A DNA stretch of 64,000 bases from an uncultured Gemmatimonas sp. (lineage in GTDB: Bacteria; Gemmatimonadota; Gemmatimonadetes; Gemmatimonadales; GWC2-71-9): NCBI GenBank assembly GCA_964535105.1, contig CAZHSO010000003.1, forward strand, positions 14,173 to 78,172, given 5' to 3'. This document shows, one piece after another, positions 4,142-58,031 of the stretch. Within the stretch, counting starts at the first letter, position 1. Each line of letters starts with the position of its first letter. Both the position numbers and the translations under genes were made by a program. The notes under the pieces are model-generated. The model was not told the DNA's origin, searched no databases, and saw only the letters and a program-made list of their open reading frames with translations.

Positions 4142-4154
4142 CTGGAGGCTGGTG

Positions 4155-5399: not shown

Positions 5400-5452
5400 T
5401 CCACAGCTAAATCATGAGTCCCTGAGGGCTTAGGGGGGGTTATCTTTGCCCG

Positions 5453-8198
<2,746 letters not shown>

Positions 8199-8200
8199 GG

Positions 8201-9502
8201 ATGGAGGAGCTCTTCTCTGACGCGGGATTGTCCCGAGACGGCGCGGGGGCACTCCTCCTGGGCAAGGTTTCGCTCGAAGAGCTTGCCCGCGAGGCAGGGA
8301 CACCGGCGTACATCTACAACACCGAATCGATCCGGCGACGCTATGCCGCGCTCGCGGCCGCCATGGGCGCGCTGCCGCACCGGATCCAGTATGCAGTCAA
8401 GGCCAACAGCTGTCTCGCCGTGCTACGTGTCCTGCGCGACCTCGGCGCCGGCTGCGACATCGTGTCGGCCGGTGAGCTCTTTCTTGCCCGGGCGGCGGGA
8501 TTCCCACCGGACCGGATTGTGTTCAGCGGGGTAGGGAAGACAGCGGCCGAGCTCGTCCAAGCCTTCGACGCGGGTATCGGGCAGATCAACATCGAGTCGC
8601 TCGAAGAGCTGAGCCTGCTCTCCGAGCTTGCGAAGGGCCGCGTCGGCGCCGCGCCGGTTCGCGTCGGCATCCGGGTCAATCCCGATGTCACCGTCGATAC
8701 CCATCCGTACATCACCACCGGCACGGCGGCCGCCAAGTTCGGAATTCCCGCCGACCAGGTCCTGGACGCCGCCAGGCGTATCGCCGGGGAACCGAAGCTT
8801 TTGCTCAGCGGTATCGCGATGCACGTCGGCAGTCAGCTGCTGGAGACCGAGCCGTACACGACGGGCGCCGCCCGCCTGGCCGTGCTGGTCGGTACGATTC
8901 GCGGGGCGGGCATCACGACGCTCGAGTCGATCGGCATCGGCGGCGGACTGGGCATCCGCTACAAGGACGAGATCCCGCTCGATCCCAAAGACCTCGCCGC
9001 GGCCATCGGCCCGATCACGGCGCCGCTGGACCTGGCTGTCCACCTCGAGCCGGGACGGTACCTCGTCGGCAGCGCGGGAATCCTGCTCACGACCGTTCTC
9101 TACCGGAAGCAGGCGGGCGGCAAGCATTTCGTGGTGGTCGATGCCGGCATGACCGACCTGGTGCGGCCCAGCCGGTACAATGCCCACCACGAGATGGTCG
9201 TCGCCCGGGATCAGGGCCGGGCGCTCAGGCACGTGGATGTGGTCGGTCCGATCTGCGAGAGCGGCGATTTCCTGGCGCTCGACCGCCCCCTCCCGCTGGT
9301 GGAGGCGGGTGACGTGATCGCGATCCTGGGCGCCGGCGCGTACGGGTTCGTGATGGCGTCGACCTACAACGCGCGGGCCCGTCCTCCGGAGCTCCTGGTG
9401 GATGGGAGCAGGTGGGCCATCGCGCGGCCGCGCGAGCAGTTGGAAGAGCTAATTCGTGGTGAACGGCCGGATTGCCTCAGCCGCCCCGCTGACTCGCCAT
9501 GA
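8201..9502 (+). CDS. lysA: Diaminopimelate decarboxylase
   Basis: PLP-Lys motif YAVKAN, plus GIGGGLGI and CESGD motifs. The start was moved to the ATG at 8201, 3 nt after the proS stop. Confidence 0.9.
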
Positions 9503-11052
9503 CGACGCACGACAGGATCCTCATCCTCGACTACGGCTCCCAGTTCACCCAGCTGATTGCCCGGCGGGTGCGCGAAGCCCATGTGTACTCGGAGATCCAT
9601 CCATCGAACCGCTCACTGGCCTGGATCCGCGAGTGGGGTCCGAAGGGAATCATTCTTTCCGGTGGTCCCAACTCCGTCTATGACGAGGGCGCGCCGCTCG
9701 CACCAAAGGAGCTGCTCGACCTCGGCATTCCGGTGCTCGGACTTTGCTACGGGATGCAGCTCATCGCGCATCTCGCCGGAGCGCGAGTGGTGAGCGCGTC
9801 GCGGAAGGAGTACGGCCGGGCCGCGGTCAAGGTCCACGGCGGCCGTCTCTTCCAAAGCTTCACGCCGGGCGAAGAGATCCAGGTATGGATGAGTCACGGC
9901 GACCACGTGGACGCCCCGCCTCCGGGCTATGTGGCCATCGCGTCGAGCGCGAATTCGCCGGTCGCCGGCTTCGAGCATGAGAGCAAGCCGGTCTTCGCGG
10001 TACAATTTCATCCCGAGGTCGCGCACACTCCCCGCGGCGGAGAAATCATCGCGAGCTTTCTCTTCGATGTCTGCGGCTGCACCCCCGACTGGACCGCCGG
10101 GCATTTCATCGAGAGCGAGGTCGCGCGGATCATCCGTCAGGTCGGGCCGGCGACCCGAGTGATCTGTGGGCTTTCCGGTGGGGTCGATTCGTCGGTGGCT
10201 GCCGCGCTGGTCCATCGCGCCGTCGGCAACCGGCTCACCTGCATCTTCGTGGATCACGGGCTGCTCCGGTTGCGCGAACGGGAGCAGGTCGAGCAGACCT
10301 TCCGCAGGCATCTGGGCATCGACCTCCGGGTGATCGAGGCGAGCGACCGGTTCCTCGCCCGACTCGATGGGGTCGTCGATCCCGAAGAAAAGCGGCGCAT
10401 CATTGGGCACGAGTTCATCGAGGTGTTTGCCGACGAGGCCAGCGCAGTGGGTGGAGATGTCGGCTTCCTGGTGCAGGGAACGCTCTACCCCGACGTCATC
10501 GAATCGACATCGCCCGGAGGAGGGCCATCGGTCACCATCAAGACCCACCACAATGTCGGCGGGCTTCCAGAGAAACTGCCCTTCGCGCTGATCGAGCCGC
10601 TCCGCGAGCTCTTCAAGGACGAAGTGCGCCAGGTGGGGCGCGAGCTGGGCCTGCCGGAGGAGATCGTCGGCCGGCATCCGTTTCCCGGGCCGGGATTGGC
10701 CATCCGAATTCTTGGCGCGGTCACCCGCCCGGCGCTCGACATGCTCCGGCAGGTGGATGCGATCTACATCGAAGAGATTCGCGCGGCGGGACTCTACGAC
10801 GAGATCTGGCAGGCCTTTTCCGTGCTGCTCCCGATCCGCTCGGTGGGAGTGCAGGGGGACTTCCGCACCTACGATCAGGCGGTGGCCCTGCGCGCGGTCA
10901 CCAGCCGCGACGGGATGACCGCCGACTGGTACCCCTTCCCACCGGAGGTGCTGGGGCACATCTCGAATCGCATCGCCAACGAGGTGAAGGGGGTGAACCG
11001 GGTGGTGTACGACGTGAGCTCGAAGCCGCCCGCCACGATCGAGTGGGAGTAG
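9499..11052 (+). CDS. guaA: GMP synthase (glutamine-hydrolysing)
   Basis: GATase1 nucleophile motif GLCYGMQL and FHPEV, ATP-pyrophosphatase motif SGGVDSS, C-terminus ATIEWE. ATGA overlap with lysA. Confidence 0.95.
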
Positions 11053-11053
11053 C

Positions 11054-11506
11054 CTAAACCCCCTTTTCCTCGAGCAGGCGGAAGAGCTGCTCCGCATCCT
11101 CGAGAGCCCTCAGCCGATCCGGCACGTCCGGCATCTGGGCGAACTGGGCAAGCTTTCCGAGCACCGGCAGATACTGATTCGACACTTCGGTCGGCGGTGC
11201 CACAATCATAAAGAAGATATGCACCGGGCGGTGATCGACGGCATCGTACTCCAGGCCGGCGCGGTGCAGCCCGAAGCCCAGGCGCAATCGATTGAGCGCG
11301 AGGGAGCGGCAGTGCGGGATGGCGAATCCTCGCCCCACGCCGGTTGAGCCCAGCGCCTCTCGCCGCTTGAGCAACCGGCTCACCTGCAGGGTCGAGCGCT
11401 CATCGAGACGCAGCAGGGCCACCAATTCATCGAACACCAGGTCCTTGGTCGGGGCCTGAAGGTCGAGGGAGACGGCGTTGGGGTCCAGGAATTCACCGAG
11501 GCGCAT
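11054..11506 (-). CDS. ptsN: PTS EIIA(Ntr)-type nitrogen regulatory protein
   Basis: 150 aa, EIIA type-2 fold with the phosphorylatable His in GFAIPH. Its stop lies 1 nt from the convergent guaA stop. Confidence 0.8.
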   Translation of the reverse strand: MRLGEFLDPNAVSLDLQAPTKDLVFDELVALLRLDERSTLQVSRLLKRREALGSTGVGRGFAIPHCRSLALNRLRLGFGLHRAGLEYDAVDHRPVHIFFMIVAPPTEVSNQYLPVLGKLAQFAQMPDVPDRLRALEDAEQLFRLLEEKGV

Positions 11507-11588
11507 TCCCGGTGTAGTCTAGATTGGTGGGAAGGCGTCCGGTACCCCCCGCGTTGCCGCTTCCGCCTTTGCCAAATAGCTTTCCCTC

Positions 11589-12572
11589 ATGCGGTTATCG
11601 TTCTTCTCCTCCCCCGGCGTCCCCCTCATCCTGGCTCCCATGGCCGGGGTGTCGGAAGGCCCGTTTCGTCAGATCTGCCGTCGCTTCGGCGCCGACATCC
11701 TCATGACGGAATTCCTCTCTGCCGAGGCGATCCGCCGCGGAATTCGGCGGACGCTCGAGGGAGCGGAGTTCGAGGAGATCGAGCGCCCGGTCGGGGTCCA
11801 GATCTATGGCGCCGATCCGCTCGGAATGGCGCGCGCCGCGGCGATCGTCACCGACGCATATCACCCCGACTTCATCGACATCAACTTCGGATGTCCGGTG
11901 AAGAAGGTGGTGCAGCGCAATGGCGGCTCGGGATGCCTCCGGGACATGGACCTGGTCGAGCGAATCATCCGCGACGTCGTGGCTGCGACGCACCTCCCCG
12001 TGTCGGTGAAGACCCGAAGCGGCTGGAACGACGAGTCGCGTGACCCCGTCGGCATCGCGCTCCGGATGCAGGACGCCGGTGCTGCGGCCTTCACGCTCCA
12101 CGCCCGCACCCGCTCGCAGATGTTCCAGGGCAAGGCCGACTGGGACGAGATCGCCCGGGTGGTCGAGGCCCTGGAGATTCCCGTCATCGGAAATGGCGAC
12201 ATCAACAGCGCCGGCGATATCCTGCGCATGCGGGAGCACACCGGCTGCGCCGCGGTCATGGTGGGACGCGGCGCCTTCGGGAATCCGTGGATCTTCCGCG
12301 ACGGTGGGGCGCTGCTGCGGGGCGAAGACCCCGGGCCGCCGCCCGGCGCGGGGGAGCGATTCGCCGTTGCCCTCGATCATGCCCGGCTGGCCCTTCGCCT
12401 TCAGGGCGACGAGCGCAAGACCGTCATCGAATTCCGAAAGCACCTCGGCTGGTACACCAAGGGACTCCCGGCGTCGGCGCATCTCCGCGAGCGCCTCTTC
12501 CAGGTGGAATCGATGGTCGAAGCCGAAGCGATCTTCCGCGACTACCTCGAGCCGGCCGTCCAGGCGGCGTGA
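11589..12572 (+). CDS. dusB: tRNA-dihydrouridine synthase
   Basis: LAPMAGVSEGPFR N-terminus and the catalytic Cys motif INFGCPVKKV. 327 aa. Confidence 0.88.
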   Translation: MRLSFFSSPGVPLILAPMAGVSEGPFRQICRRFGADILMTEFLSAEAIRRGIRRTLEGAEFEEIERPVGVQIYGADPLGMARAAAIVTDAYHPDFIDINFGCPVKKVVQRNGGSGCLRDMDLVERIIRDVVAATHLPVSVKTRSGWNDESRDPVGIALRMQDAGAAAFTLHARTRSQMFQGKADWDEIARVVEALEIPVIGNGDINSAGDILRMREHTGCAAVMVGRGAFGNPWIFRDGGALLRGEDPGPPPGAGERFAVALDHARLALRLQGDERKTVIEFRKHLGWYTKGLPASAHLRERLFQVESMVEAEAIFRDYLEPAVQAA

Positions 12573-13333: not shown

Positions 13334-14256
13334 TGCAGGAGACCGTCTACCGCTCCGAGCAGCCGCCGTTCACCTGGATCGACGTGACGGCCCCGACACC
13401 CGCCGAGCTGCAGGAGCTGGCTGCCCGGCACGGACTCCCGGCCACCGCGGTCGAGGACTGCCTCGATCCGGAGCACCTCCCGAAGTATGAGCGGTTCAGT
13501 GACTCGATCTTCCTGATCCTCCGGGTGTTCGACGCGGCCGCCCCGGAGTCCGCCGGCACGGTTCAGGAGCTCACCCGCAAGATCGCGCTCTTCCTCCGTG
13601 GCGATGTCGGTCTCACCGTGCACCGGGTGGATCTTCCCGCGATCGCCGCGGTGCGGGAGCGATTCAGCGGACCGGCGGCGGAGGAGAGCACCGGGACCGG
13701 GCTGCTGTCGGCTCTCGTCAAGGCCACCCTCGATACCTACGACAAGCCGCTGCAGCAGGCCGAGGACGACATCGACGCGTTCGAGGAGGGATTGTTCCGG
13801 CCCGACCTGCCGGCCCCGCCGCTCGACCGGGTCCACGTGCTCAAGCGGCGGGTGAGCCTGATCAAACGCATACTCTGGCAGACGCAGACCGTGATCGTCA
13901 GGATGACGCCGGCGGGGGAGCGGATGCTGCCGTTGTACCAGGACCTCAAGGAAAACACCGAGAGCTATCACTTCTGGGCCGATCAGCTCCAGGAGGATCT
14001 GAACAACCTCCTGAGCATACACGTCACCATGGCCTCGCACCGCACCAACGAGGTGATGCGGGTGCTGACGGTCTTCTCGGCGTTCTTCCTCCCCCTCACG
14101 TTCATCGTCGGCGTGTACGGGATGAACTTCGAGCACATGCCGGAGCTGGGAAAGCGGTGGGGATATCCGGCCGTAATTGCACTCATAGCAGCTGTCTGTC
14201 TCGTGATCTTCATCTGGTTCCGCCGGCGCGGATGGCTCGGCCGGGGACGTTCATGA
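13333..14256 (+). CDS. corA: CorA-family divalent cation (Mg/Co/Ni) transporter
   Basis: YGMNF (GMN) motif followed by two C-terminal TM helices. The ATG at 13333 shares 1 nt with the larB stop (TGATG). Confidence 0.9.
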   Translation: MQETVYRSEQPPFTWIDVTAPTPAELQELAARHGLPATAVEDCLDPEHLPKYERFSDSIFLILRVFDAAAPESAGTVQELTRKIALFLRGDVGLTVHRVDLPAIAAVRERFSGPAAEESTGTGLLSALVKATLDTYDKPLQQAEDDIDAFEEGLFRPDLPAPPLDRVHVLKRRVSLIKRILWQTQTVIVRMTPAGERMLPLYQDLKENTESYHFWADQLQEDLNNLLSIHVTMASHRTNEVMRVLTVFSAFFLPLTFIVGVYGMNFEHMPELGKRWGYPAVIALIAAVCLVIFIWFRRRGWLGRGRS

Positions 14257-15647
14257 GCTCGCTCATCTGGCTCGCGGCGGGGCTTGCTGCCGGAGCTATT
14301 GCCGGCTCGCTCATTAGCCGGGGGCGGCGGCCGAAACGTTCTGGGACGGCGCCCCAGCCCACGGCAGAAGGTCCTCCACTGCTGGAGTGGATTCTCCGGT
14401 CCAACGGCGCCATGGGGGCCTGGATGGTCGGCCCCGGCACGCGTGAGGTGGCAGTGCCCACCGGGGGCCTCTCCGACGACGTGGACCGTGTGGTCCGGGC
14501 GAGGCTGGAGCATCAGCGGGTGGGTGACGGGCAGGGCGTCGAGCGGCTGGGCTCGGGGACGCTCGTGTTCGCCAGCCTCGAGGGGCGTGCGGCGGGACTG
14601 CACCTCCCCGCCGACAGCTCTCCCCAGGCAACGGCGACGGCCCAGCGCGACCTCGCCCGGCTGCTGGACTATGACCGGTGGCGACCCGTCCTGGCCGACG
14701 TGGCCAAGGAGCAGGACACTCCCGGCGAGTCGGTGGAAAGTGTAGCGCTCCGTCTTGCGCATCAGTTGGAGCGGCTCCTCGGCGTCGAAACCTGCGTGGC
14801 GCTCGCCGACACCGCCGGCGTTCGCATCACCGGCGTCTCCCTGCGGACCGACCGCCGCCTTCTGCGCACCATTGTCGCCGAAGGGAGCGTGCTGGAGCAG
14901 GCAGCCCTCGGTCGCGCGGGCTCGATCGCCGGGGTAGTGGCGCCGTTCGGCGACGTCCTCTCCAGCCGCCGGCAGCGGCGCGACCCCGCCTTCGTCTGTC
15001 CTGTTCCTGGGGACAAAGTCCCGCTTGGCGCCGTCGCGGTGTGGACGACGGGTGGCGCGGAGCCGGTGGGCCCGCTGCTCGCGGCATTCCGAAGCGCGGT
15101 GGAGACGGCAGGTCCGCGCCTCCTCGCCGCGCAGGAGCGGCGGGCGCTCAATGATGCCGCCATTCGCGATCCGCTCACCGGGCTCCGAAACGGTCGCGGG
15201 CTCGGCGAGGTGATGTCTTCGATCAGCATGGCGACCGGTGCGCTGGTGTACGCCGACCTCGACGACTTCAAGCAGCTCAACGACGCATTGGGGCATCCGG
15301 CCGGCGACGCGGCGCTGGTGCATGTGTCCCGTCTGCTGATTCAGGCAGTGCGTGACAACGACACTGTCGCGAGGCACGGCGGCGAGGAATTCGCAATCTG
15401 GCTTCCGGGGGCGACACTGGAACGGGGCCGGCAGGTTGCCGAGCGGATCCGGCAGGCGCCCGCCTGGAGCGAGTGGAAGTGGCAGGGTGAGAAGCGGCCG
15501 CTGCGCGCGTCGTTCGGCGTGGCGGCGTGCCCCGATACCAGCGCCACCAAGGCGGGCCTGCCGGCCCAGGCCGACGCCGCGCTCTATGAAGCGAAGCGGG
15601 CGGGGCGCGATCGGGTGGTGGTGTTTGAGGAGGCAAGGAGGCAATGA
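14253..15647 (+). CDS. Membrane-anchored diguanylate cyclase (GGDEF domain)
   Basis: N-terminal TM helix (LIWLAAGLAAGAIAGSLI). C-terminal GGDEF domain with an intact GGEEF and an RxxD I-site (RDND) five residues upstream. ATGA overlap with corA. The last codons and the stop lie inside repeat array 15631-15670. Confidence 0.85.
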   Translation: MSSLIWLAAGLAAGAIAGSLISRGRRPKRSGTAPQPTAEGPPLLEWILRSNGAMGAWMVGPGTREVAVPTGGLSDDVDRVVRARLEHQRVGDGQGVERLGSGTLVFASLEGRAAGLHLPADSSPQATATAQRDLARLLDYDRWRPVLADVAKEQDTPGESVESVALRLAHQLERLLGVETCVALADTAGVRITGVSLRTDRRLLRTIVAEGSVLEQAALGRAGSIAGVVAPFGDVLSSRRQRRDPAFVCPVPGDKVPLGAVAVWTTGGAEPVGPLLAAFRSAVETAGPRLLAAQERRALNDAAIRDPLTGLRNGRGLGEVMSSISMATGALVYADLDDFKQLNDALGHPAGDAALVHVSRLLIQAVRDNDTVARHGGEEFAIWLPGATLERGRQVAERIRQAPAWSEWKWQGEKRPLRASFGVAACPDTSATKAGLPAQADAALYEAKRAGRDRVVVFEEARRQ

Positions 15648-17385: not shown

Positions 17386-17749
17386 GGGGGCGACTGGCTT
17401 CGACGGGTCAGTAGAAGGTGTGGCAGCGTGCCCAGGTCCAGGTCCCTGGTAAAACCGCTTGGAAACGTTCAAATGCCAATTCTGATTTGGCGCTGGCTGC
17501 CTAAGCTGAGCTAGTCTCGCTCTAGGCACCTTCGGCGACGGAGCCCGTCCGGGGCGTCGGCGTCGAATACGCAAAACCGGGCTGGCCTGCTGTGGTCCTC
17601 CGACGCGGCAGGCGAGATTCTTCGGAGGTTCGTTCCGGGAAGGTTGGCCGATGACCGGCTCGGGACCACGCGAAGACACCGGCCTACGCACGTAGACGCT
17701 GCGCTGAAAGCTGGTTCGGACCAGGGTTCGATTCCCTGCGCCTCCACTA
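17386..17749 (+). ncRNA. ssrA: tmRNA (SsrA)
   Basis: 5' GGGGGCGACTGGCTTCGACGGG. The acceptor stem 17386-17392 pairs with 17739-17745 and includes the G3.U identity pair. T-arm reads GGTTCGATTCC. Tag reading frame 17475-17504 is GCC AAT TCT GAT TTG GCG CTG GCT GCC TAA, giving ANSDLALAA. After discriminator A17746 the genome reads CTA rather than CCA. Confidence 0.93.
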
Positions 17750-20244: not shown

Positions 20245-20414
20245 TGGGGATGCGAGGGAGGCGGGTGGTAGCGGGGGGTCGCGAGGGCGCCCACCGGAGG
20301 CCCCAACCCCTTGTGTGACCATGGCATAGCATCCCCCGAACTACTTGGCCCGCGCGTTGCTGATTGGACCCGTGCCGGGGACGTTTTCCCGGTCACTCCC
20401 AAGCCCGGATCGTG

Positions 20415-23372
20415 ATGCGCAAGCAGTCGATGGCGCCTGCCGACTCGACGTCCCTCGCGACGAAGCTGCTGCTCCAGAGCAGGTTCGGGCAGCGGCTCCT
20501 TCTGCTCTTTGTCGGATGCGCCATCGTCCCCACCTCCGCCGTCGGCTGGCTGTCGTTCCAGAGCACTGCGGCTCAGCTCACCCAGCAAAGCTGGGAGCGG
20601 CTCGCCTCGGTGTCGGGAGCCGCCGGACACACCCTGTTCGACCGGCTCGATTTCCTGGAAGCCGACCTGCGAAAGTCGGCCTCCCGATTAGCGACCTGTT
20701 CCGAATGTGCGTCCGCGATGCTCTACGCCGCGGACCAAGTCGTGTGGGTCTCGGCCAAAGCGTCGAGGCATCTGGCCGGCGAGGAGGACGACCTCGGGTT
20801 CCTCGTCCCGGACGACCTGCCTCCGCTCGTGCCGGGGCAGAGCACGCTGCTCGCACGCCGCCACGCCGCCAACACCGTCCGGATCTACCTGGTGCACCGT
20901 CTGGCGGGGAGCTCGGAACGGGTCGTCGTCCGGATCAACCCGGCGTATCTCTGGAGCGCCTCCGACGAGGAGGCGCTGCCGTCGAGTGTCAGCCTCACGC
21001 TCTGGGATTCCCGGGTGGGCGTGCTGATCGCATCGGCTTCCGGCGGCGCGACCGTCACGCCTGGTATCGCGGGTGCCCTGGCGCGCGCACCGAGCGGGAC
21101 ATTCGAGTCGAGCGGCCCGCGCGGAGCGTCGCTGGCCTCCTGGTGGGCGCCTGCGGCGATCGGGCGGTCGTTTCTCACCCCGCTGCGCGTGATCCTGAGC
21201 CAGCCGATGGCCGACGTGCTGGCTCCCATGGCGTCGTTCCGGCGTGACTTTCCGCTCCTCCTGGCGGTGGCGTTGCTGACCGTCCTCCTGCTGAGCATGA
21301 GTCAGATCCGGCGGAGCCTCCAGCCCCTCGCGGAGCTGCAGCGCGGAACCCGCCGGATCGCCGAGCGCGACTTCGAGCACCGTGTGCGGGTCTCGAGCGG
21401 CGACGAGCTCGAAGAGCTCGCCGGCTCGTTCAACACGATGTCGACCCGCCTGGCGCGCCAATTCAACGCCCTGAAGGCGGCGGCGCAGATCGATCGCGCC
21501 GTGCTCTCTTCGGTGGACACGGGCTCCATCGCCCAGACCGTCGTCGACCGGATCCCCGAAATCTGCCCCTGCGACGGCCTCAGCATCACGCTGCTCGCCG
21601 CTCCCGGGAGCGCGGACGCGACGACCTGGCGTGCTTCCGCGGGAGGGGTCGAGCGCGAACATGCGAGCGTGCGGTTGGCCGCGGGAGATCTTCGCCGCGC
21701 GCACGAACACACCGACCGGCTGGTCTACACCACCGGCGAGGAAGCCCTGCCCCCGTTCCTCGCCCATTTCCATCGCGAGGGTGAAGTCTCCGAAATCGAG
21801 GCCTTCCCGCTCCGGTACGGCGGAGATCTGCTCGGCGTGCTCGCGCTGCGGAGGAAGCCGGATGAGACGACCGAGGACGACATGATCCAGGTGCGCCGAA
21901 TCGCCGACCAGGTCGCGGTGGCGCTCTCCAACGCGCGGATGGTGGATCAGGTCCGCATTCTCGCCTTCTACGACAGCCTCACCAAGCTGCCCAACCGTGT
22001 GCTCTACAAGGAGCGTCTCGCCCAGGCGCTCGTGCGCGCCGCGCGCAACGACCGGTTCGTGGCGGTGTGCTTCATCGACATCGATCACTTCTCACGCATC
22101 AACGACACCCTGGGGCACGACCTCGGGGACGAGCTGCTCCGGGAAGTCTCCGGGCGCCTCGTGGCGTTGTCGCGGGTGGGCGACAGTGTGGCCCGGATCG
22201 GTTCCGAGCAGGGTGTGGCCGAAGTCTCCCGGCTCGGCGGCGACGAGTTCACCGTGGTGCTGTCCGATCTCACCGACCCGCAGGAATCGGTGCGCGTGGC
22301 GCGAAGGCTCCTGGATTCGCTTCGACGGCCGATCCGTCTCGGGATGCAGGAAGTCTTCGTCACGGCCTCCGTCGGGATCGCGATCTATCCGTTCGACGGC
22401 GCCGATACCGAGGAGCTGCTCAAGAGCGCCGACGTCGCGATGTATCACGCGAAGCAACAGGGCCGCAACACCTACCAGATGTATTCCGCGTCGATGAACG
22501 CCGAAGCGATGGCCCGCCTGCTGCTGGAGCAGCAGCTCCGCAAGGCGGTCGAGGCGCGCGAGTTCACCATCTGGTATCAGCCCATCGTGGATCTCCACAC
22601 CAGGAAGCAGGTGGGCGCTGAGGCGCTGGTCCGCTGGGCGCATCCGGAGCGGGGCCTCCTCTCACCCGCGGAATTCATCTCGCTCTGCGAGGAGTGCGGG
22701 CTCATCGTGCCCCTCGGCGAATGGATTCTCCGCGAGGTGTGCTCGCAGGCGAAGGCGTGGGAAACCGCCGGGTTCGGCACCGTCAGGATGTCGGTCAACC
22801 TCTCCGCCCGGCAGCTCCGCCACGACGGCATCGTCGAGACCGTGCGGACCATTCTTGAGGAGACCGGTCTCCGGCCCCGGTCCCTCGTGCTGGAGCTGAC
22901 CGAATCGATGCTGATGGAGCCCCGTGGCGTCACCGGACGAACCATCCGGGAGCTCGCCGATCTCGGAGTGAGCCTTGCGATCGACGACTTCGGCACCGGG
23001 TATTCCTCGCTCAGCTACCTCAAGAACTTTCCGGCGACCACACTCAAGATCGACCGCTCTTTCATCGCCGGCATCACCTCCGATCCCGACGACTCGGCTA
23101 TCACGACCGCGATCATCGCCCTGGCGAGCGCGATGGAGCTCGATGTCGTCGCGGAGGGGGTGGAGACCGAGGCCCAGGCGAAATTCCTGAAGGATCGCGG
23201 CTGTCAGAAGATTCAGGGCTATCTGGTGGGACGTCCGATGCCGAAGGAGGAGTTCGAGGCGGGGTTGCTGAACTCCGTCCACCGCGAACGGTCGAAGGGA
23301 AAGGCCTTGTCACGCCGAGCGAAGCGAAGCGGCGAAGCCCCACGTTTCCCAGCGGGCTCGGGAGCGGGCTGA
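20415..23372 (+). CDS. Sensor protein with periplasmic domain, HAMP, GAF-like region, GGDEF and EAL domains
   Basis: Two TM segments flank a periplasmic region of about 250 aa. HAMP-like segment [31 protein letters not shown] motif ([10 protein letters not shown]). EAL-domain motifs [22 protein letters not shown] and EGVE. Confidence 0.88.
23317..23338 (+). repeat. Weak GCGAAG-type purine-rich array in the 3' tail of the GGDEF-EAL gene
   Basis: gagcgaagcgaagcggcgaagc encodes part of a non-conserved-looking C-terminal tail (RRAKRSGEA). The periodicity is imperfect and there is no complementary arm. Confidence 0.3.
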
Positions 23373-37265: not shown

Positions 37266-37874
37266 CTAATAACGCCGGATGACTCCCACGACCACGCCCT
37301 GAATCATGATGTCATTCTCGGGAAATCGGAGCGGCTGCATGGTGGGATTGGCAGGCTGCAGGCGAACCCAGCCACCGGGCTCGCGAAAGAACTTCTTGAC
37401 GGTGGCTTCCGAGCCGTTGACCAGCGCGATGACCATCTCGCCGTTGTCGGCGGTCTGGCGGCCGTGGACGACCACGAAATCTCCATCGACGATGTGCTCG
37501 TCAATCATGGAATCGCCCCGGACCCGGAGCGCGTAATTCGGTCCGCGGGCGGGCAGCATCGCGTCCGGAACGGGAAGAGTCTCCTGATGGAGGACCGCCT
37601 CGATGGGCATGCCGGCGGCCACCACCCCGAGCAGCGGGATTTCCGTGGCGCCGCTCATCCCCTTGGGCGGGAGGACCTCGATGGAGCGGCTCTCGTTGTA
37701 GCTGCGGCGGATGTACCCCTTTCGCTCCAGGTTGGTGAGATGCTCGTGAACGGTTGCCAGAGACTGAAAGGAAAAGTGCTCCGCGATTTCTTCGAAGCTC
37801 GGCGCGAAGCCCCGGGCTTGGATATGGCCCTCGAGGTAACTGAGGATTTCCCTTTGCCGCTTGGTGAGGGGCAT
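37266..37874 (-). CDS. lexA: LexA repressor
   Basis: MPLTKRQREILSYL wHTH N-terminus. A-G cleavage context VVAAGMP. S24 peptidase Ser (VRGDSM) and Lys (EATVKKF). Confidence 0.93.
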   Translation of the reverse strand: MPLTKRQREILSYLEGHIQARGFAPSFEEIAEHFSFQSLATVHEHLTNLERKGYIRRSYNESRSIEVLPPKGMSGATEIPLLGVVAAGMPIEAVLHQETLPVPDAMLPARGPNYALRVRGDSMIDEHIVDGDFVVVHGRQTADNGEMVIALVNGSEATVKKFFREPGGWVRLQPANPTMQPLRFPENDIMIQGVVVGVIRRY

Positions 37875-38063
37875 GGCCGGACGGTCCTCGGTGATTGGAG
37901 CCCGATGGCGCGCATTACCCAAAAGGACACCATAACGTAACCGAACAAGTCCCGAAAATCAACTAGACACTTCCGGTGCTGCCTAGTGCCTTAACCCCCA
38001 GTCCCATACTATGTTGCACCTGACTCTACCCTCGGCCCCGCTCTCCTACGCTGAGGTCCGCAC

Positions 38064-39752
38064 GTGACGATTCCAACCGGATCAGAACTCGCGCTCCCTG
38101 CGACGCAGGTAGAGGAGCTGATGCGGACTATTGTCAAGGGCCTTCGGGCCTTCCAGATGTACCTCCCCAACAATCCGGTCTACCAGCGCGCGGAGCAGGC
38201 GATCCGCAACGCCTTCGTCCCGGTCTGGTCCTCCACCCAGCAGCTCGCCCTGACGATCGTCGAGACCGACATCACCTGGGAGGAACAGGTGGTGTACCGG
38301 CAGCCCAGCAAGCACGACAGCTTTGCCTGGATGCTGTACAAGGACGGAATGCGGCATCTCACCATCCGCCCGGGCGTGGAGGACGAGGAGCTGGTCCGCT
38401 TCCTCCACGTCGTCACCCGGGCTCGGATGCTCGCGAGCGACGCCGGGGACGACCTGCTGACGCTTCTTTGGGAGCAGGATTTTCAGTGCATCGAGTATCA
38501 GTTCGCCGAGATCATTACCGACTCACTCGTCGTGCTCGATCCGCAGGCGGTCGATCTCGCGATGCAGCAGGATCCCGTCGCCCAGCAGGCCGTCAAGGAA
38601 GAGGTTCGGACCGATGCGGCGGATCGCGCGGGCGCGGTCGATCTGGATGATTTCGATTCCACGCTCTATTTCCTGGAGGAGAACGAGACCGCCACCCTCA
38701 GGCGACAGGTCGAGGAGGAATACACCCGCGACGCCAGGAAGGCGGCGCTCGATGTACTGCTCGACACCTTCGAGACCCAGCCCGTCACCATGGTGCGGGA
38801 GGAAATCCTCGGCATCCTGGACGGACTCTTCCCGAACCTCCTCACCCGAGGAGAGTTCCGCACCGTGGCCGGCCTTCTCCGGGAGTTCCGCACGATCTCG
38901 CAGCGAGTCGCCGTCCTGGAACCGGGGGTACGCGACCACCTGCTCTCCTTCCAGACCCGTCTCAGCGAGCCGACGATCCTTTCCCAGCTGCTGCAGTCGC
39001 TGGAGGAGTCGTCGGCGCTGCCCGAGGATGAGGACGTCGGCGAGGTCCTTGGCGAGCTCCACGCCGAGGGGCTCGAGACGATGCTCACCTTCCTCCCGGC
39101 GCTCAAGCGGCCGGCGATCCGCACGATTCTCGAGGCATCGGTGGATCGCCTGGCGGCGGTCAACACCGGCATTCTGCTCTCGATTCTCAATAACAGCGAT
39201 TCGAGTGCCCTCCCCGGGGCGGTGGCCGTCTGCAAGCGGCTCAATCTCCAGATCGCGGTGCCGTCGCTTGACCGCCTCGTGTCGCATGGCGATGCGGTGG
39301 TACGGCTCGGAGCGGTCGAGACCCTGGGGCACATCGGTTCCGCCGGCGCGATGGCGGGGTTGGAACGGGCGGTGGACGATCCGGACCGATCGGTCCGCAT
39401 GGCGGCGCTGTCCTCGGTCATGGCGAAGGGGTATCGGGCGGCGCTTCGGCGCTTGGAGGCGGTGGTTCAGGGCCGGGGCCCTAACGAGCTGGAGCGCGCC
39501 GAGCGCCGACAGTTTTTCGAGGCGTACGCCGTCGTGGCGGGCCCGGCGTCGCTCCCGGTCCTCCTCGAAATCCTCGAGCCCAAGCGGCTGTTCCGGCGGA
39601 AAGTGAATTCCGAGACCCGTACCTGCGCCGCGTATGCGATTGCGAGGCTGCAGAATGCCGACGCCCGCGCCGTGCTGGAGCGGATCCAGCAGGACAAGGA
39701 CCTCCCGGTTCGCAACGCCGCCGTGCGGGCGCTCCGGGAATGGCCGGCATGA
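38064..39752 (+). CDS. HEAT-repeat protein with an N-terminal module shared with the downstream HD-GYP protein
   Basis: GTG start with GAGG 5-9 nt upstream. The C-terminal third carries HEAT/PBS-lyase-like repeats (DPDRSVRMAALSSV, DKDLPVRNAAVRAL). The N-terminal ~120 aa resemble the N-terminus of the next gene. Confidence 0.7.
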   Translation: MTIPTGSELALPATQVEELMRTIVKGLRAFQMYLPNNPVYQRAEQAIRNAFVPVWSSTQQLALTIVETDITWEEQVVYRQPSKHDSFAWMLYKDGMRHLTIRPGVEDEELVRFLHVVTRARMLASDAGDDLLTLLWEQDFQCIEYQFAEIITDSLVVLDPQAVDLAMQQDPVAQQAVKEEVRTDAADRAGAVDLDDFDSTLYFLEENETATLRRQVEEEYTRDARKAALDVLLDTFETQPVTMVREEILGILDGLFPNLLTRGEFRTVAGLLREFRTISQRVAVLEPGVRDHLLSFQTRLSEPTILSQLLQSLEESSALPEDEDVGEVLGELHAEGLETMLTFLPALKRPAIRTILEASVDRLAAVNTGILLSILNNSDSSALPGAVAVCKRLNLQIAVPSLDRLVSHGDAVVRLGAVETLGHIGSAGAMAGLERAVDDPDRSVRMAALSSVMAKGYRAALRRLEAVVQGRGPNELERAERRQFFEAYAVVAGPASLPVLLEILEPKRLFRRKVNSETRTCAAYAIARLQNADARAVLERIQQDKDLPVRNAAVRALREWPA

Positions 39753-41212
39753 CCGAGGATCTCTCCCATCCTTCACGCCCCGGCACGGGGGACGAAGGCT
39801 TCATCCGGGCCGTCGGCCGGACCTTCCTCCTCACATTTTACGCCGCGCTTCGGGCCCTCAAGCTCTATCCGGTCGAGAACACCACCGTGCAGAAGGCGCT
39901 CGACGAGCTGCAAGGCGCGGCGACGGCGGTCCTGCACCGGGAGTCCGAGCTCGAGCTTCGGCTCGCCGGCGACTTCCTCTTCATCAACGGGACCCGGCTG
40001 CGTCTCGAGCTCGACAACTTCGCAGCCTTCAGCAATCTGCTCACCACCCTCCGCGCGTTCGACATCGGCGTCTTCCGGACGCACGTCGGGGTCGAGCGCC
40101 GCGAGTGGCAGGCGCTGCTCAGCATCCTGCTCAGCATCTCCGGCGATTCCGCCGTCGAGGACCGCTACATCGCGCTGGTCGAGCGGCTGGGCCAGGCCAA
40201 CACCCCCCACATCGAATTCGAGCCGGTCTCCGCGGTCACCGAGGAGCTGAACGCCCAGGAGGCGCGCGAGGTCGCCAAGCGCACCTACGCGCAGGGCGTG
40301 GCGGTCACCAAGGAGGTGGTCAACAGCATCCGGATGGGGCGGACCAGCAGCGTCAAGAAGGTGAAGCGCGCCGTGCAGATGATCGTGGACCAGGTGCTCA
40401 CCAACGAGACCTCGATCATGGGGCTCACCACGCTGCGCGACTACGACGAGTACACGTTTACCCACTCGGTCAACGTCTGCATCTTCTCGGTGGCGCTGGG
40501 CCGGAAAATCGGACTCACCAAGCTGCAGCTCTACGACCTCGGCATGACCGCGCTGCTGCACGACATCGGAAAGGCCAAGATCCCGATCGAGATTCTGAAC
40601 AAGACCCACGGTCTCACGGAGGACGAATGGCGGGTCATCCAGGCGCATCCCTGGCGCGGCGCCATGACGCTGTTCGGGCTCCGGGCCTACGAGGAAATTC
40701 CGTACAAGTCGATTCTCGTGGCGCAGGAGCACCACATGAAGACCGATCTGACCGGTTACCCGCGCGCCATCCGGCCGCGCAGCCTGGGTATTTTCTCGCG
40801 CCTGGTCGCGGTGGCCGACGGGTTCGACGCCGCCACCACCCGGCGCGTCTACCAGACGGTGCCGATCGAACCCGACCAGGTGCTGCGGGAGATGTGGACC
40901 AACCCGCGCCGGGGGTATGATCCGGTCGTGGTCAAGGCGCTCATCAACCTGATCGGCGTGTATCCGATCGGCACGTGCGTCATTCTCGACACTTTCGAGG
41001 TGGGAATCGTGGCCCAGGCCAATCCCGATCGCGAGATGCTGAACCGCCCGGTGATTCGCATCGCGATCGATCCCACCGGTGGCGCCCTCACTCCTCCCGG
41101 CCTGGCGGTCGACCTCACCGAGCGCGGCTCGGATGGGAACTTCCTCCGGTCCATCGTAAAGGTCACCAACCCGGACCGGTACAGTCTCACGGTGGGCGAC
41201 TATTTCCTCTGA
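39749..41212 (+). CDS. HD-GYP domain cyclic-di-GMP phosphodiesterase
   Basis: HD motif LLHDIGK and GYP motif [11 protein letters not shown]. The ATG at 39749 gives an ATGA overlap with the upstream stop; the ATG at 39740 is also in frame. Confidence 0.85.
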
Positions 41213-41216
41213 TTCC

Positions 41217-43301
41217 GTGGCTCCCGACCTTTCAAGCCCGCTGCTCGGACGCTACGCCCGCGCGCTCTCGATCGCGGGCCCGGCACTCGTCATCGCGACT
41301 GCCCTGGTGGACGATCGGTGGACCGAGCACCCGATGGCTCTGGTCCTCGTCTTCCTCTCGGTGGCGCTCCTCCGGGTCGCCCCGGTGCGCTTGGGCAAAT
41401 TCTCCTACCTCACCCAGATCGGGATTCCCGCCCTCGTCGCCGCGATCTCCATGCCGCCGTCGGTCGCCCTCTTGGGACTCGCCGGCGGGGTCTTCCTGGC
41501 GGACCTTGCCTGGACCCGCAAGCCGTTCCAGGTAGCGTCGGTCAATGCCGGCCGGGAAGCGCTTGCCTTCGCCGTCGCGTACGGATTCTACGCGCTGGCG
41601 CTCTCGGTGAGCGGCGCGCGCGCCATCTCGCTCGATTTCATGGCGCCGTTCGTCGTGCTCGCGGGCACCTATTTCGCGTTGACCCGCGTGCTGTTCTATC
41701 TGTCGCTGATCATGCGGGGCAAGCTCGAGGTGGAAGAGCGGCTGTTCATTCTGCGCTGGGAGATCATCGCCTTTCTGATGACCTTGCTCGGCGCCGCCAT
41801 CATCATCTGGGCGCTGACGCAGCTGACCCCCGCCGGATGGATCGTCGTCGCCTCGGCCCTCGCGGTCTCGGGCCTGGTCACCCGCACGCTGCTGGAAGAG
41901 GCCATCTCCGCCGAGGATCTGAACAAGGTCCACACGATGCTGGGGACGATCACCAGCAACCTGAGCCTGCGCGCCTCCTTCGAGCAGATCGAGCAGCTCG
42001 CCTACCGGCTTCTCGACTGGGGCGACTTCCGGATTTACCGCGCCGGAAGCGAGCGCTCCGCGCTGGCGTACCGCGCGCAACGGGGGCGGCCGAACCGGAT
42101 CGCGCCGGACCCGGGACTCGAGTTGGTGCGCAGCCGCGTCCTCGATCACGGGGAACCGCTGGTCATCGACGACACCATGCGGGAGCAGGTGCTGCAGTAT
42201 CCCGACCCCGCGGTGCGCACCATCGCCTTTCATCCGCTGCGTTCCGCCGACCGGGTGATCGGGACGCTGGAGCTCGAGCACCACAAGCGCCATCACTACC
42301 GGGCCCACGACCGGTCGGCCATGAAGGCGATCGCGGGCCAGATCTCGACCGCGATCCAGATCGCCGAGCTGCGACGGCCTCTCCTCGAGACCGTCGAGAA
42401 AATCGGGGGCCAGATCAACGCCCTCGCGCGCGCCGCTAACTCCCTGCGATCCTCCGCGCTGGCGCTGCAACTGGCGTCGGAAAACATGCGGCGCGATGCG
42501 TCGAGCCAGGAATCGTTCGCGCGGACCGGCCTCGAAGCGACCGCGGAGCTCGGCCGGCTCGCGGAGGCCGCCGCGGAGGCCGGGGCCCATGCCGCACGCG
42601 TCAGCGCCGACGCCGCGGATGCGGCCGCCAAGCACCGGGAGGAAATCGAAGTCGCGGTGGACCGGCTCGTGCACGTGCAGGCGTTCGTCGCCGACAGCTC
42701 GCGCTCGGTGGCGGCCCTCGGCGCAACCACCGGCGGGATTCGCGCGTTCCTCACGTCGATTCAGGAAATTGCCGAGCTCACCAACGTCATCGCGCTCAAC
42801 GCCTCGATCGAAGCCCACCGCGCCGGGAAGTCGGGGCGGGGCTTCGCGGTCGTCGCGGAGGAGATCCGCCAGCTCGCGATGCAGAGCGCCGCCGCGGGCG
42901 CCGATGCCAGCCGCCTGGTGAGCGACATCTCACGCGAAGTCTCCGGCATCGCCACCCAGATGGAGCGCGGTGAGCAGCTGGTCGAGGACGTCGGCGAGCT
43001 GTCGGGAGATACCGCGCGCGCGCTCGATGCGATCGTGCGGGCCACCCAGGAAGCCGGCACCCAATCGCGGGCGATCGCCGAATCGGAGGTGGCGCACGAG
43101 GCTGCCAGCCGCCGTCTTTCGGCGCAGATCCGCCAGCTTGCCGACGCGGCGCTCCGGGCGCGGGGACAGACTGAATCGCTCGCGCGCGAAGCCGGCGAAG
43201 CAACCCGGGGCCAGGCGGAGCTGGAGGCGGCGATCGGGCAGCTGGAGCGAGTGGCGGGGGAGCTTCGGGGCATCGCGCGCCACTTCGCCGTCGAGGGATG
43301 A
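41217..43301 (+). CDS. Polytopic membrane protein with GAF domain and methyl-accepting chemotaxis protein (MCP) signalling domain
   Basis: About 8 predicted TM helices, then a GAF-like region, then the MCP hairpin-tip signature [36 protein letters not shown] saw no HAMP domain and no che genes in the window. Confidence 0.8.
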
Positions 43302-43714
43302 ACGGCTCCCGCGTGTACGTGGCGCTCGGAAGCAATCTGGGTGACCGGGAAGCACACCTCGCCTTCGCACGCGAACGACTCGCCGGCTTGCCGGGCACCG
43401 CGCTCCTGGGTGCCTCCGCCATCGAAGAAACTGCTCCCCTCGGCGGTCGCGCCCAGCCGCCGTATCTCAACCAGATGATCGCGCTCGACACCACGCTCAC
43501 GCCGCGCGCCCTGCTCGCTGCCTGCCACCGGATCGAGGGCAAAGCGGGCCGCCGGCGCCGGGAGCGGTGGGAGTCGCGTACGCTCGATCTCGATCTCGTC
43601 CGGTACGCCGGCGTGGTGATGGACGAGCCCGGGCTCACGCTACCGCATCCCGCGCTGGGAGACCGCCCGTTCTGGAGTGCGGAGCTGGAGGAGCTCGCGC
43701 GCATGGGCTGGTGA
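43298..43714 (+). CDS. folK: 2-amino-4-hydroxy-6-hydroxymethyldihydropteridine diphosphokinase
   Basis: [13 protein letters not shown]-terminus, [14 protein letters not shown] and LPHP motifs. ATGA overlap with the MCP-domain gene. Confidence 0.88.
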
Positions 43715-43717
43715 CGG

Positions 43718-44287
43718 GTGCCGATACCCCCCGGGCTTCCCGACGCGCTGCCGTCCTGGGCACACGTGCGTCCCAAGCGCCTCGCCCATATCGAGCGCGT
43801 GGCGGAGCTCATGGCGCGATGGGGCGCCGAGATGCGCCTGCCCGCCGCGGAGCACGCCCGCTGGCTCCGGGCCGCCTGGCTTCACGATGCGCTCCGGGAT
43901 GCCGCGCCGGAGGAGCTGGCCCAATGGGCTGCGGGCATCGAGGGCCCGGTCAAGCTCCTGCACGGCCCCGCCAGTGCCTCGCGCGCGGAAGCCGAGGGAG
44001 AAACCGATCGCGGCGTGCTGGATGCCGTGCGCTATCACTCGGTGGGCTTTGCGGAGTGGGATATGCCGGGGCGCGCGCTCTACTGCGCCGATTTCCTCGA
44101 GCCGGGGCGATCCTTTGATCGGGTGGGTCGCGCGGCGCTCGCCACTCGGTTTCCCGTCGATCCGCGCGGAGTGCTGTACGAGGTCGCCCGTCGCCGCCTG
44201 GCATACTCGATCGAGTTCGGCTGGATGATCCCCGAGCCCACATTCCGGTTTTGGAACAGCCTCGTCATTCCCTCCGCCGCGGAGTAA
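43718..44287 (+). CDS. HD-domain phosphohydrolase (YqeK-like)
   Basis: RLAHIERVAELM...AAWLHDALRD HD motif. 189 aa with a GTG start 3 nt after the folK stop. Confidence 0.6.
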   Translation: MPIPPGLPDALPSWAHVRPKRLAHIERVAELMARWGAEMRLPAAEHARWLRAAWLHDALRDAAPEELAQWAAGIEGPVKLLHGPASASRAEAEGETDRGVLDAVRYHSVGFAEWDMPGRALYCADFLEPGRSFDRVGRAALATRFPVDPRGVLYEVARRRLAYSIEFGWMIPEPTFRFWNSLVIPSAAE

Positions 44288-44673
44288 TGCGGATCGTGCT
44301 CGCCGCGATGGCGGGTGCAAGCGGCTTCTCCGGCTGCTCGGATGCCGGAGAACCTCGGACCGCGCGGCCCGTCCCCGGGGGGGAGCGCATCGTGGTGGAG
44401 GTGCTGAACGGGTCGGGGCGCCGTGGGCTGGCGCGCGCCGCGACCCGGGTGCTGCGTCAGGCAGGCTTTGATGTGGTCTACTTCGGGAATGTGAGCCGGA
44501 GCGTCGGCGTGACGCAGGCACTCGCTCGGCGCGGCGATTCCGCGGCGGCGGTGCGGGTTGCCCGCGCCCTCGGAGCGACCCAGGTTCGGGTGGCCACCGA
44601 CACTCTGCTTCGCGTGGATGTGACCGTGCTCCTCGGGGGCGACTACCGACCGCCACCGGGATTGCGACCCTAG
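44287..44673 (+). CDS. LytR_C-domain lipoprotein
   Basis: Lipobox-like ASGFSGC, then VVEVLNGSGRRGLARAATRVLRQAGFDVVYFGN, typical of the LytR C-terminal domain. TAATG junction with the preceding gene. Confidence 0.6.
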   Translation: MRIVLAAMAGASGFSGCSDAGEPRTARPVPGGERIVVEVLNGSGRRGLARAATRVLRQAGFDVVYFGNVSRSVGVTQALARRGDSAAAVRVARALGATQVRVATDTLLRVDVTVLLGGDYRPPPGLRP

Positions 44674-56867: not shown

Positions 56868-58031
56868 ATGGCATCGCGTGCGCTGACCGAGATCCGGCGC
56901 CAGCTCCAGCGGCTGGTGCGGCTGCCTGCGGGCAAACACTGGATCGTGAGCTGTTACCTCAAGCTGGAGCCGCGCGATCGCTCGCGGGGGAAGTACCTGA
57001 TCAAGCTCAAGAATCGCGTCCGCGAGGTGATCGAGGCGCTTCCCGCGGAAGGCCTCGACCGCCAGGAGACAGAGCAGGTGATCGGTGATCTGCACAAGCT
57101 TCAGGTGATGCTGCAGCGGCCTGACGCGCTGCCGCCGACGCAGGGGCTGGCCGTCTTCGTCTCCAAACCACTCGGCCTCTTCGAGATCATTCCGCTCCCG
57201 CGGGTGCATCGCTCCCGTCTGCTGGTGGACCGGACAGCGCTGGTGCGGGAGCTCGCCGCGCTCGAGGATGAAGTGGGCCGTCTCCTGCTCGCGGAAGTGG
57301 ACAAGAGCGGGGCGACGATTTACGAAGTCACGGCGTTCGAAGCGAAGAAAATCGCCGACATCGAAGCCACCGCCCGGAAAGGCGGCCGCTTCCACAGCGA
57401 CCGGCACGAGGCGCCAGGCAAAGGGGAGCACGGGTTCCATAACCGGCTCCGGCATGAGCGGGACCAGCTCTTCGACGCCGTCGCCGCGCGGCTCTTCGAC
57501 CTGGACCGCCGGGAGCCCGTCCGGGGGATCGTGCTCGCCTCGGCGGGCAACGAGGCCGATTCGCTCCGGATGTTTCTCCACCCGTACATCGCCGGCAAGG
57601 TCGTCGGCACCGCGCGGATGGCGCGACGGAAGGCGTCGATCGCCGATGTGCACGCGACCGCGCTCGAAGTCCGGGAGACGTTCGAGCGGAAGCTGGAGCG
57701 GCACCTGGTCGCCGAAATGCTCCTGGGGCAGGGCTCCGGCTGGGCCGTGAATGGCATCGGGGCCACGCTCGATGCGCTCGCCAAGGGGCAGGTGCGCACG
57801 CTGCTCGTGCGCGCCGATGCGAGCGTGCCGGGCTTCCGCTGCGGTGCGACCGGGAAGCTCACGCTCAATGCCCGGGATTGCCGGAGCCTCGGAGAGGCAA
57901 TCCCGGTTCCCGATGTGATCGATGATTCGATAGAGGAAGCGCTGCGCCAGCGGATCGACCTCGACGTGGTCTTCGAGCCCGATGCGGCGGAGACGATCAA
58001 CGGCGTGGCGGCGTTGCTCCGGTTTAGATAG
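56868..58031 (+). CDS. Bacterial eRF1/Pelota-superfamily (baeRF-like) protein
   Basis: 387 aa. N-terminal [10 protein letters not shown] block. The central segment [12 protein letters not shown]...[16 protein letters not shown] aligns by eye with the eRF1 segment [25 protein letters not shown], giving GGR in place of GGQ. The C-terminus [10 protein letters not shown] is like eRF1 domain 3. GGAG sits 7 nt upstream of the ATG. Confidence 0.7.

Follow-up and report, generated by a model that had tools for sequence, protein, structure and literature searches.

The window analysed here is a stretch of 64,000 nucleotides (nt) of contig CAZHSO010000003.1 (assembly GCA_964535105.1) from an uncultured Gemmatimonas sp., and it is the only sequence from the source genome that was examined. 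At positions 38064-43301 it carries three co-directional and probably co-transcribed genes, here called g1, g2 and g3, which encode a HEAT-repeat protein, a predicted HD-GYP phosphodiesterase and a methyl-accepting chemotaxis protein (MCP), respectively. The original prediction was that this trio forms a non-chemotaxis signalling module. Our analysis bears this suggestion out only in part: there are g1-g2 loci that lack the MCP gene, the MCP tip is canonical and g2 has no receiver domain. We consider it more probable (about 0.6) that two separate things have come to lie side by side through the history of the operon: a g1-g2 module, and an ordinary kinase-coupled receptor of the 44-heptad (44H) class, g3. 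The genes and the segments on which this reading leans are as follows.

38064..39752 (+): g1, 562 amino acids (aa); open reading frame (ORF) with a match to Pfam HEAT_2
38100..38420 (+): g1 residues 13-119, the segment of its N-terminal domain with homology to the g2 N-terminal domain, from hhalign
39749..41212 (+): g2, 487 aa; ORF with a match to Pfam HD_5
41217..43301 (+): g3, 694 aa; ORF with matches to Pfam GAF and MCPsignal
42780..42878 (+): tip of the g3 hairpin (residues 522-554), more conserved than any other segment of g3 and near-identical to the tip of TM1143

The ORFs lie exactly where three tightly linked genes had been predicted. The ATG of g2 falls within the stop codon of g1 (ATGA; a 4 nt overlap) and a gap of 4 nt separates g2 from g3.

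The g1-g2 pair and its shared N-terminal domain

The g1 protein matches the Pfam family HEAT_2 (PF13646) over three stretches (E = 8e-18, 64.9 bits). In its AlphaFold model (predicted local distance difference test score, pLDDT, of 83.9), an α/β domain (residues ~13-147) is joined by an acidic, disordered linker (~150-200) to a solenoid of the HEAT/ARM type (~206-558). In the model the solenoid is built of paired helices with pLDDT mostly above 85, and its Foldseek matches are alphaRep, armadillo-repeat and importin-α proteins. The earlier description of g1 as a 562 aa protein with C-terminal HEAT repeats therefore stands as regards the repeats; the solenoid is not confined to the C-terminal part, and an α/β domain precedes it. 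In a fold search with full-length g1 the solenoid dominated the matches and no fold was identified for the N-terminal domain.

The g2 protein consists of an N-terminal domain shared with g1 (residues 20-129), a linker, a catalytic domain of the HD-GYP type (231-394) and, at the C-terminus, a conserved extension (395-487) for which Pfam at E = 10 yielded no useful match. The catalytic domain matches Pfam HD_5 (PF13487, HD-GYP-type; E = 4e-20, 72.6 bits against a cut-off of 27.2, residues 231-394) and also Pfam HD. Residues His239, His271-Asp272, His300, Glu327-His328-His329, Asp333 and Gly336-Tyr337-Pro338, which cover the metal-binding His and Asp positions and the HHExxDGxGYP motif, are all intact, and they are invariant in a set of 25 orthologues and in a set of 79, the Longimicrobiales-type orthologues included. 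The closest relatives in the PDB are V-cGAP3 (5z7c, E = 5.5e-24), PmGH (4mcw), PA4781 (4r8z) and Bd1817 (3tm8). The HD-GYP phosphodiesterase with intact HD and GYP motifs that had been read from the sequence is thus confirmed at the level of domain and residues, and g2 is predicted to be catalytically competent towards c-di-GMP (cyclic di-GMP) or a related cyclic dinucleotide. The substrate is not fixed as c-di-GMP, because among solved structures the nearest to g2 is that of an enzyme specific for cGAMP (cyclic GMP-AMP). A literature search found no paper connecting HD-GYP proteins with the Gemmatimonadota.

The comparison with V-cGAP3, PmGH and PA4781 is close for the catalytic domain, to which g2 aligns over residues 231-404 (E = 5.5e-24 to 1.8e-9) with the HD, HH and GYP motifs intact, although the choice between c-di-GMP, pGpG and 3'3'-cGAMP as substrate cannot be read from the sequence. 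It ends at the N-terminus, which in g2 is neither a receiver (REC) domain nor a second HD-GYP-like module but the domain held in common with the neighbouring HEAT protein. Residues 1-200 of g2 gave no Pfam match other than a sub-threshold one to DUF3391 (E = 0.12); no REC domain was found there, and Pfam detected no receiver or other known Che docking domain in the protein. Because it lacks a receiver domain, there is no evident route by which a Che pathway would reach g2.

The N-terminal regions of g1 and g2 are homologous in profile comparisons. Residues 13-119 of g1 align with residues 20-129 of g2 over 103 columns with an hhalign probability of 85% (E = 6.3e-6, obtained with cleaner alignments; an earlier local comparison had given E = 5e-4). 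When hidden Markov models of the two domains were run against 3647 ORFs, each matched the family of the other, reciprocally and exclusively. The similarity is visible to profile methods only, a pairwise BLASTP comparison of g1 and g2 giving a nonsignificant E of 0.17. The region, a domain of about 110 residues that is α/β in the model of g1, is well conserved in g1 as well as in g2. It is absent from the curated libraries, with no useful match in Pfam and no sequence match in the PDB, both searched at E = 10.

The two genes are adjacent at every related locus that is long enough to include both: 86 g1 and 79 g2 orthologues were found in 88 loci, to which three further loci (L089-L091) are added. 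The 4 nt overlap seen in the window recurs at L086, L089, L090 and L091. The flanking genes vary between loci, and g1-g2 is the one pair that is never parted or lost. These observations support a two-gene module that extends across the phylum Gemmatimonadota, in which g1 is predicted to be a scaffold-type solenoid and the constant partner of g2. The shared N-terminal domain might bring the two proteins together, or might allow both to sense a common ligand or partner, and the solenoid could offer a docking surface that tethers or gates the enzyme.

The family is large and almost entirely restricted to this phylum. With the N-terminal 340 residues of g1 as query, 1901 clusters at 50% identity were recovered (E <= 1e-3), and among the matches listed the length is nearly always 550-600 aa. 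A genome scan found relatives of g1 in at least 571 species genomes, from which the best 80 loci were taken, all 80 from Gemmatimonadales; more distant loci were obtained through a profile search and contig look-ups. All named members belong to the Gemmatimonadota, the one exception being a contig of 2.8 kb with the label Vicinamibacteria. A profile of the most distant members again returned only Gemmatimonadota names, mostly Longimicrobiales, this same contig excepted.

The HD-GYP, HEAT, GAF and 44H MCP families are known parts. What is new is the partnership of g1 and g2 through an unnamed shared domain, the stable position of the pair between trpB and trpA (see below) and the transmembrane (TM) and GAF input of g3. 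The combination of an HD-GYP enzyme and an obligate partner of the HEAT-solenoid type, linked through a new shared domain, is a testable item in a poorly studied phylum.

Gene order across the Gemmatimonadota

Ninety-one related loci were compared in all (the 88 noted above, mapped by tblastn, and L089-L091), with gene calls read on nine contigs. A neighbour-joining tree of g1 and g2 was built, and the Longimicrobiales-type sequences served as its root. In much of the Gemmatimonadales, lexA on the opposite strand is followed by trpC-trpF-trpB-g1-g2-trpA-g3-folK-panB-panC-HD-LytR_C, and the Pfam annotation of locus L036 agrees with this order. Loci with trpB, trpA and the MCP gene number 40, with one more that is cut upstream, so that trpA stands between g2 and the MCP gene in 41. 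The trp genes are absent from 28 loci and from one that is cut, the window among them, and here the MCP gene follows g2 directly. The remaining class, with trpB and trpA and no MCP gene, comprises seven loci: L076 and all six of the Longimicrobiales-type loci (L085-L087 and L089-L091), whose g1 proteins are only about 31% identical to the window copy. At every locus trpB and trpA are either both there or both gone, and where trp genes are absent, they are gone from both sides of the pair, trpC-trpF-trpB upstream and trpA downstream. A split of trpB from trpA by the HEAT and HD-GYP genes can be seen at L036 (7306-13918), L085-L087 and L089-L091 (the last three at about 5300-12000). In Gemmatimonas phototrophica, trpC-trpF-trpB and the HEAT gene occur in the same order (RS09445-RS09430; PMC9862903).

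In the tree, the trp-flanked arrangement is both the outgroup state and a major state of the ingroup, and loci without trp genes occur in at least three places. From the presence of the trp-flanked state in the outgroup and in much of the ingroup we infer that the ancestral order was trpC-trpF-trpB-g1-g2-trpA. The g1-g2 module would thus have been inserted ancestrally between trpB and trpA within a long housekeeping operon (trpC-trpF-trpB-g1-g2-trpA-...-panB-panC-HD-LytR_C). The MCP gene would have been added behind trpA in the Gemmatimonadales ancestor, and the trp genes would have left the locus in the sub-lineage of the window, leaving g2 and g3 4 nt apart. The contiguity of the trio in the window would then be a consequence of the departure of the trp genes.

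This history bears on the expectation that the trio would be conserved as a unit. At the level of the order it is, as an MCP gene lies downstream in the same operon at 70 of the 71 informative Gemmatimonadales loci, mostly with trpA intercalated; the sole locus without one is L076, from a Gemmatimonadaceae metagenome-assembled genome (MAG), which reads trpB-g1-g2-trpA-folK at positions 3910-6557. At the level of the phylum it is not, given the Longimicrobiales-type loci. A receptor and its output enzyme would be expected to be inherited together, and the MCP-less g1-g2 loci and the frequent position of trpA between g2 and the MCP gene show a different pattern.

The tight spacing of the genes adds little. 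In the trp-flanked order trpA overlaps g2 and g3 by a few nucleotides on each side, and 4 nt overlaps are also found at trpB/g1 (L086), at trpA/panB (other loci) and at g3/folK. As the same overlaps join the trp, fol and pan genes of the super-operon, such spacing is weak evidence of a shared function. More generally, in the long mosaic operons of the Gemmatimonadota, co-orientation and tight spacing are weak evidence for a common function.

The g3 receptor and its potential partners

The g3 protein matches the Pfam GAF families (PF13185/PF01590), with GAF_2 at E = 2e-11 (44.8 bits against a cut-off of 28.6), and MCPsignal (PF00015; E = 3e-24, 86 bits against a cut-off of 34.6); HAMP was not matched and no PilZ domain was found in the Pfam scan. 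In the AlphaFold model (pLDDT of 82.8), 7-8 TM helices (residues ~6-225) are followed by a GAF domain (~251-381), for which Foldseek returned many GAF matches with target-normalised TM-scores of 0.6-0.75, and by a helical hairpin (~383-690). The C-terminal GAF helix continues without a break over residues 363-535; after a turn at 536 the chain returns as a single helix from 537 to 690. An 8TM-GAF-MCP protein without HAMP had been predicted; the GAF domain, the MCP hairpin and the lack of HAMP are all upheld, and the TM count is better given as seven or eight. The membrane region gave nothing useful in Pfam at E = 10, 5TMR_LYT included. Named homologues of g3 come from Gemmatimonadales or Gemmatimonadota. 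One homologue, P0114 (905 aa), at first sight a TrpA-GAF-MCP fusion, was rejected as a frameshift or gene-calling artefact: the 3' half of trpA is read out of frame (rich in Arg, Pro and Gly) and runs into the MCP gene.

The arms of the modelled hairpin comprise 153 and 154 residues, or about 22 heptads each. The best sequence and structure matches are McpB, McpC and YvaQ of Bacillus subtilis and TM1143 of Thermotoga maritima, and residues 19-256 of the g3 cytoplasmic segment align with residues 17-254 of TM1143 with zero net offset. On the strength of the arm lengths and the preserved offset, g3 is classed as a predicted 44H receptor with a canonical tip. The MCP tip string quoted in the original prediction was located at residues 522-553, and the mean column conservation of the tip is 0.77, compared with about 0.6 elsewhere in the protein.

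The likeness to TM1143 (2ch7, 3ja6) and to McpB and McpC thus covers the arms, the hairpin turn and the near-identical tip. The input side differs: g3 has a bundle of 7-8 TM helices and a GAF domain in place of a ligand-binding domain on the periplasmic side and of HAMP. The canonical methylation motif is, furthermore, not conserved in the g3 family. The motif [ASTG][ASTG]xx[EQ][EQ]xx[ASTG][ASTG] was not found in the window protein; among 117 database homologues it is absent from 104, and the rare matches in the family fall at non-conserved positions. There is also no C-terminal pentapeptide tether. Since the family lacks both the motif and the tether peptide, adaptation of g3 by CheR and CheB is doubtful, and signalling would probably proceed without methylation-based adaptation. 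As a chemoreceptor that is almost universal in the Gemmatimonadales, with a sensor made up of membrane and GAF domains and with neither HAMP nor methylation sites, g3 is a further testable item.

Sensors of the LytS/BtsS type place a 5TM-Lyt membrane domain before a GAF domain and then an output, which is a histidine kinase. The polytopic membrane domain of g3 likewise passes directly to a cytoplasmic GAF domain that would drive a helical output, but this output is an MCP hairpin, and the membrane domain has no similarity to 5TMR_LYT or to any other Pfam membrane domain at E = 10. In g3 the membrane and GAF domains would feed directly into the signalling helix, and the canonical tip would signal to a CheW and a CheA whose genes lie elsewhere in the genome.

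Neither the Pfam map of the 64 kb window, which contains no CheA, CheW, CheR or CheB domain protein and no Che protein, nor any locus at which genes were called, within 10 kb, provides a che gene. The original prediction, which had reported none in the window, was correct in this. MCP genes are normally dispersed in genomes, however, so that a stretch of 64 kb free of che genes is uninformative; the orphan status of g3, resting on 64 kb alone, is unproven. Kinases of the Che type seem to be widespread in the phylum. The means per genome for soil-group Gemmatimonadota are 1.02 for CheA, 1.63 for CheW, 2.33 for CheY, 2.69 for CheR and 0.83 for PilM, and flagellar genes are rare among them (PMC10581226). 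G. phototrophica is flagellated, with CheA (RS15835) and CheW (RS07755) and with three or more further MCPs (PMC9862903). A second HEAT-repeat protein of this species (GEMMAAP_RS15810, 453 aa; NZ_CP011454.1, 3735900-3737261) appears in the supplement of PMC9862903, five locus tags from the CheA gene GEMMAAP_RS15835. At the Longimicrobiales-type locus L089, a gene at 453-2093 (+), about 6 kb upstream of g1, encodes a protoglobin-HAMP-MCP protein of the globin-coupled sensor type, from which it follows that this lineage has chemoreceptors even though g3 is absent from the locus.

The known chemoreceptor route to c-di-GMP is that of the Wsp system of Pseudomonas, which consists of the MCP WspA, the CheA-like kinase WspE and the REC-GGDEF protein WspR. 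Its operon includes homologues of CheW, CheA, CheR and CheB, and WspR, the output enzyme, has a receiver domain. The g1-g2-g3 locus resembles Wsp in the genetic linkage of an MCP-type receptor to c-di-GMP metabolism and differs from it in that no che gene is near and g2 has no receiver domain. The PilZ-MCPs Tlp1 of Azospirillum and Cbp1 of Azorhizobium join chemoreceptor signalling and c-di-GMP in another way (PMC6454048). Receptors of that type carry a PilZ domain and read c-di-GMP; g3 has none, and its link to c-di-GMP is one of gene adjacency only.

Alternative explanations and neighbouring features

Three observations weigh against a g1-g2 module standing beside an unrelated, ordinary receptor. 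The methylation motif is absent from 50 of the 62 g3 orthologues at the loci. The MCP gene was kept beside g2 through at least three independent losses of the trp genes, and this retention could reflect selection for co-expression. Finally, because 70 of the 71 loci keep the MCP gene, many of them in soil MAGs, and soil Gemmatimonadota mostly have no flagellar genes, g3 is not a plain flagellar-taxis receptor in all lineages.

The same observations could be accommodated by a kinase-free module of all three proteins. Here the MCP would sense by way of its TM and GAF domains, its tip would bind the HEAT solenoid in place of CheW and CheA, the solenoid protein would control the HD-GYP enzyme through the shared N-terminal domain, and the chemoreceptor would set c-di-GMP directly. 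One operon in one order at nearly all Gemmatimonadales loci, the MCP gene still beside g2 after each trp loss, the lack of conserved methylation motifs in g3, the general lack of flagella in soil Gemmatimonadota and the lack of che genes within 10 kb would all be consistent with such a module, as would the modelled character of g1 as a protein-binding solenoid that is tied to g2 by a shared domain. Nevertheless, we regard it as unlikely. The g1-g2 pair does without an MCP gene at the six Longimicrobiales-type loci and at L076, trpA intervenes between g2 and the MCP gene at 41 loci, and folK, panB and panC are equally conserved in the operon. The canonical tip can be aligned position by position with those of kinase-coupled 44H receptors and contains nothing specific to the family. 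To our knowledge, moreover, no kinase-free MCP output has been described, and for soil Gemmatimonadota roughly one copy of CheA and of CheW per genome is reported (PMC10581226).

A version confined to the Gemmatimonadales, in which the MCP was recruited as an added, kinase-free input to an existing g1/g2 pair, its tip docking on the g1 solenoid and g1 switching g2 through the N-terminal domain, seems to us very unlikely. If true, it would constitute a direct pathway from chemoreceptor to second messenger, and it would account for the lack of methylation sites, for the retention of the receptor without flagella and for the MCP gene staying by g2 at each trp loss.

Other explanations leave the MCP aside. 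Coupling of trpB and trpA is the normal arrangement and a split trpBA is unusual; a stable split by two signalling genes is itself a testable item. If g1 and g2 were functionally tied to tryptophan synthase, either coupling tryptophan or indole status to cyclic-dinucleotide turnover or setting the TrpB:TrpA balance, their location exactly between trpB and trpA would follow. Retention of trpB-g1-g2-trpA in two deeply separated lineages whose g1 proteins are so divergent would fit this explanation, as would the 4 nt overlap of trpB and g1 at L086 and the order in cultured G. phototrophica, at least over the trpC-trpF-trpB-HEAT segment. It too appears very improbable: the pair is unchanged in at least 28 loci without trp genes, at no fewer than three separate places in the tree, the operon mixes housekeeping genes that are unrelated to one another (pan, fol and yqeK-like), and neither g1 nor g2 has a domain with known tryptophan or indole binding. 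The least probable explanation in our estimation is that g1 and g2 have no functional connection, being frozen operon neighbours whose N-terminal similarity is the trace of an old duplication without a present role. A synteny of about 15 genes is conserved phylum-wide, so that adjacency alone says little, but this pair alone is never separated or lost as its flanks change, the shared domain is well conserved in both proteins and the two reading frames overlap.

The genes and segments that flank the trio in the window are as follows.

37266..37922 (-): lexA, divergent from the operon; Pfam LexA_DNA_bind and Peptidase_S24
~37938-37962 and ~37986-38018 (no strand assigned): conserved blocks of the lexA-g1 spacer, TAACCGAACAAGnnCCGAAAnTCAA and GTGCCTTAACC...TATnTTGCA, respectively, from a by-eye alignment of 12 loci
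43298..43714 (+): folK (HPPK); Pfam HPPK, E = 3e-31; TIGR01498 above its cut-off
43718..44287 (+): HD-domain gene, YqeK-like; Pfam HD; TIGR00488 YqeK at E = 1e-9, below the NCBIfam cut-off
44251..44673 (+): LytR_C-domain gene, the last conserved gene of the operon; Pfam LytR_C, E = 5e-15

ORFs and Pfam matches agree with the prediction that the trio runs on through a 4 nt overlap into folK, an HD-domain gene and a LytR_C gene. The position of lexA is unchanged at all related loci, the YqeK-like gene, which we take to encode a housekeeping hydrolase of the diadenosine tetraphosphate (Ap4A) type, lies downstream in all of them, and the LytR_C gene is kept at related loci. The conserved spacer blocks are probably promoter or operator sequences, and may include the lexA promoter/operator and the promoter of the operon. 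The aligned spacers of the 12 loci contain no perfect palindrome and no conserved palindromic LexA box; a scan of the lexA-g1 spacer for the sigma-70 consensus gave no match, and promoter and terminator scans were at chance level.

Elsewhere in the window the Pfam map contains cell-wall, tRNA-synthetase, purine, Mg-transport and methylmalonyl-CoA genes, and no trp genes. The two GGDEF proteins that had been reported are both present. In one (14157-15647, +) some 330 residues that match nothing in Pfam precede a GGDEF domain at the C-terminus; the other (20364-23372, +) is a 1002 aa HAMP-GAF-GGDEF-EAL protein and so carries more than had been described. Together with g2 they bring the number of predicted c-di-GMP enzymes in the 64 kb to three. 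A full-length tmRNA gene lies at 17386-17749 (+; Rfam RF00023, 139 bits). At 56868-58031 (+), between the genes for the catalytic and the B12-binding subunits of methylmalonyl-CoA mutase, there is a gene encoding a bacterial eRF1-like domain (baeRF_family10, E = 9e-7).

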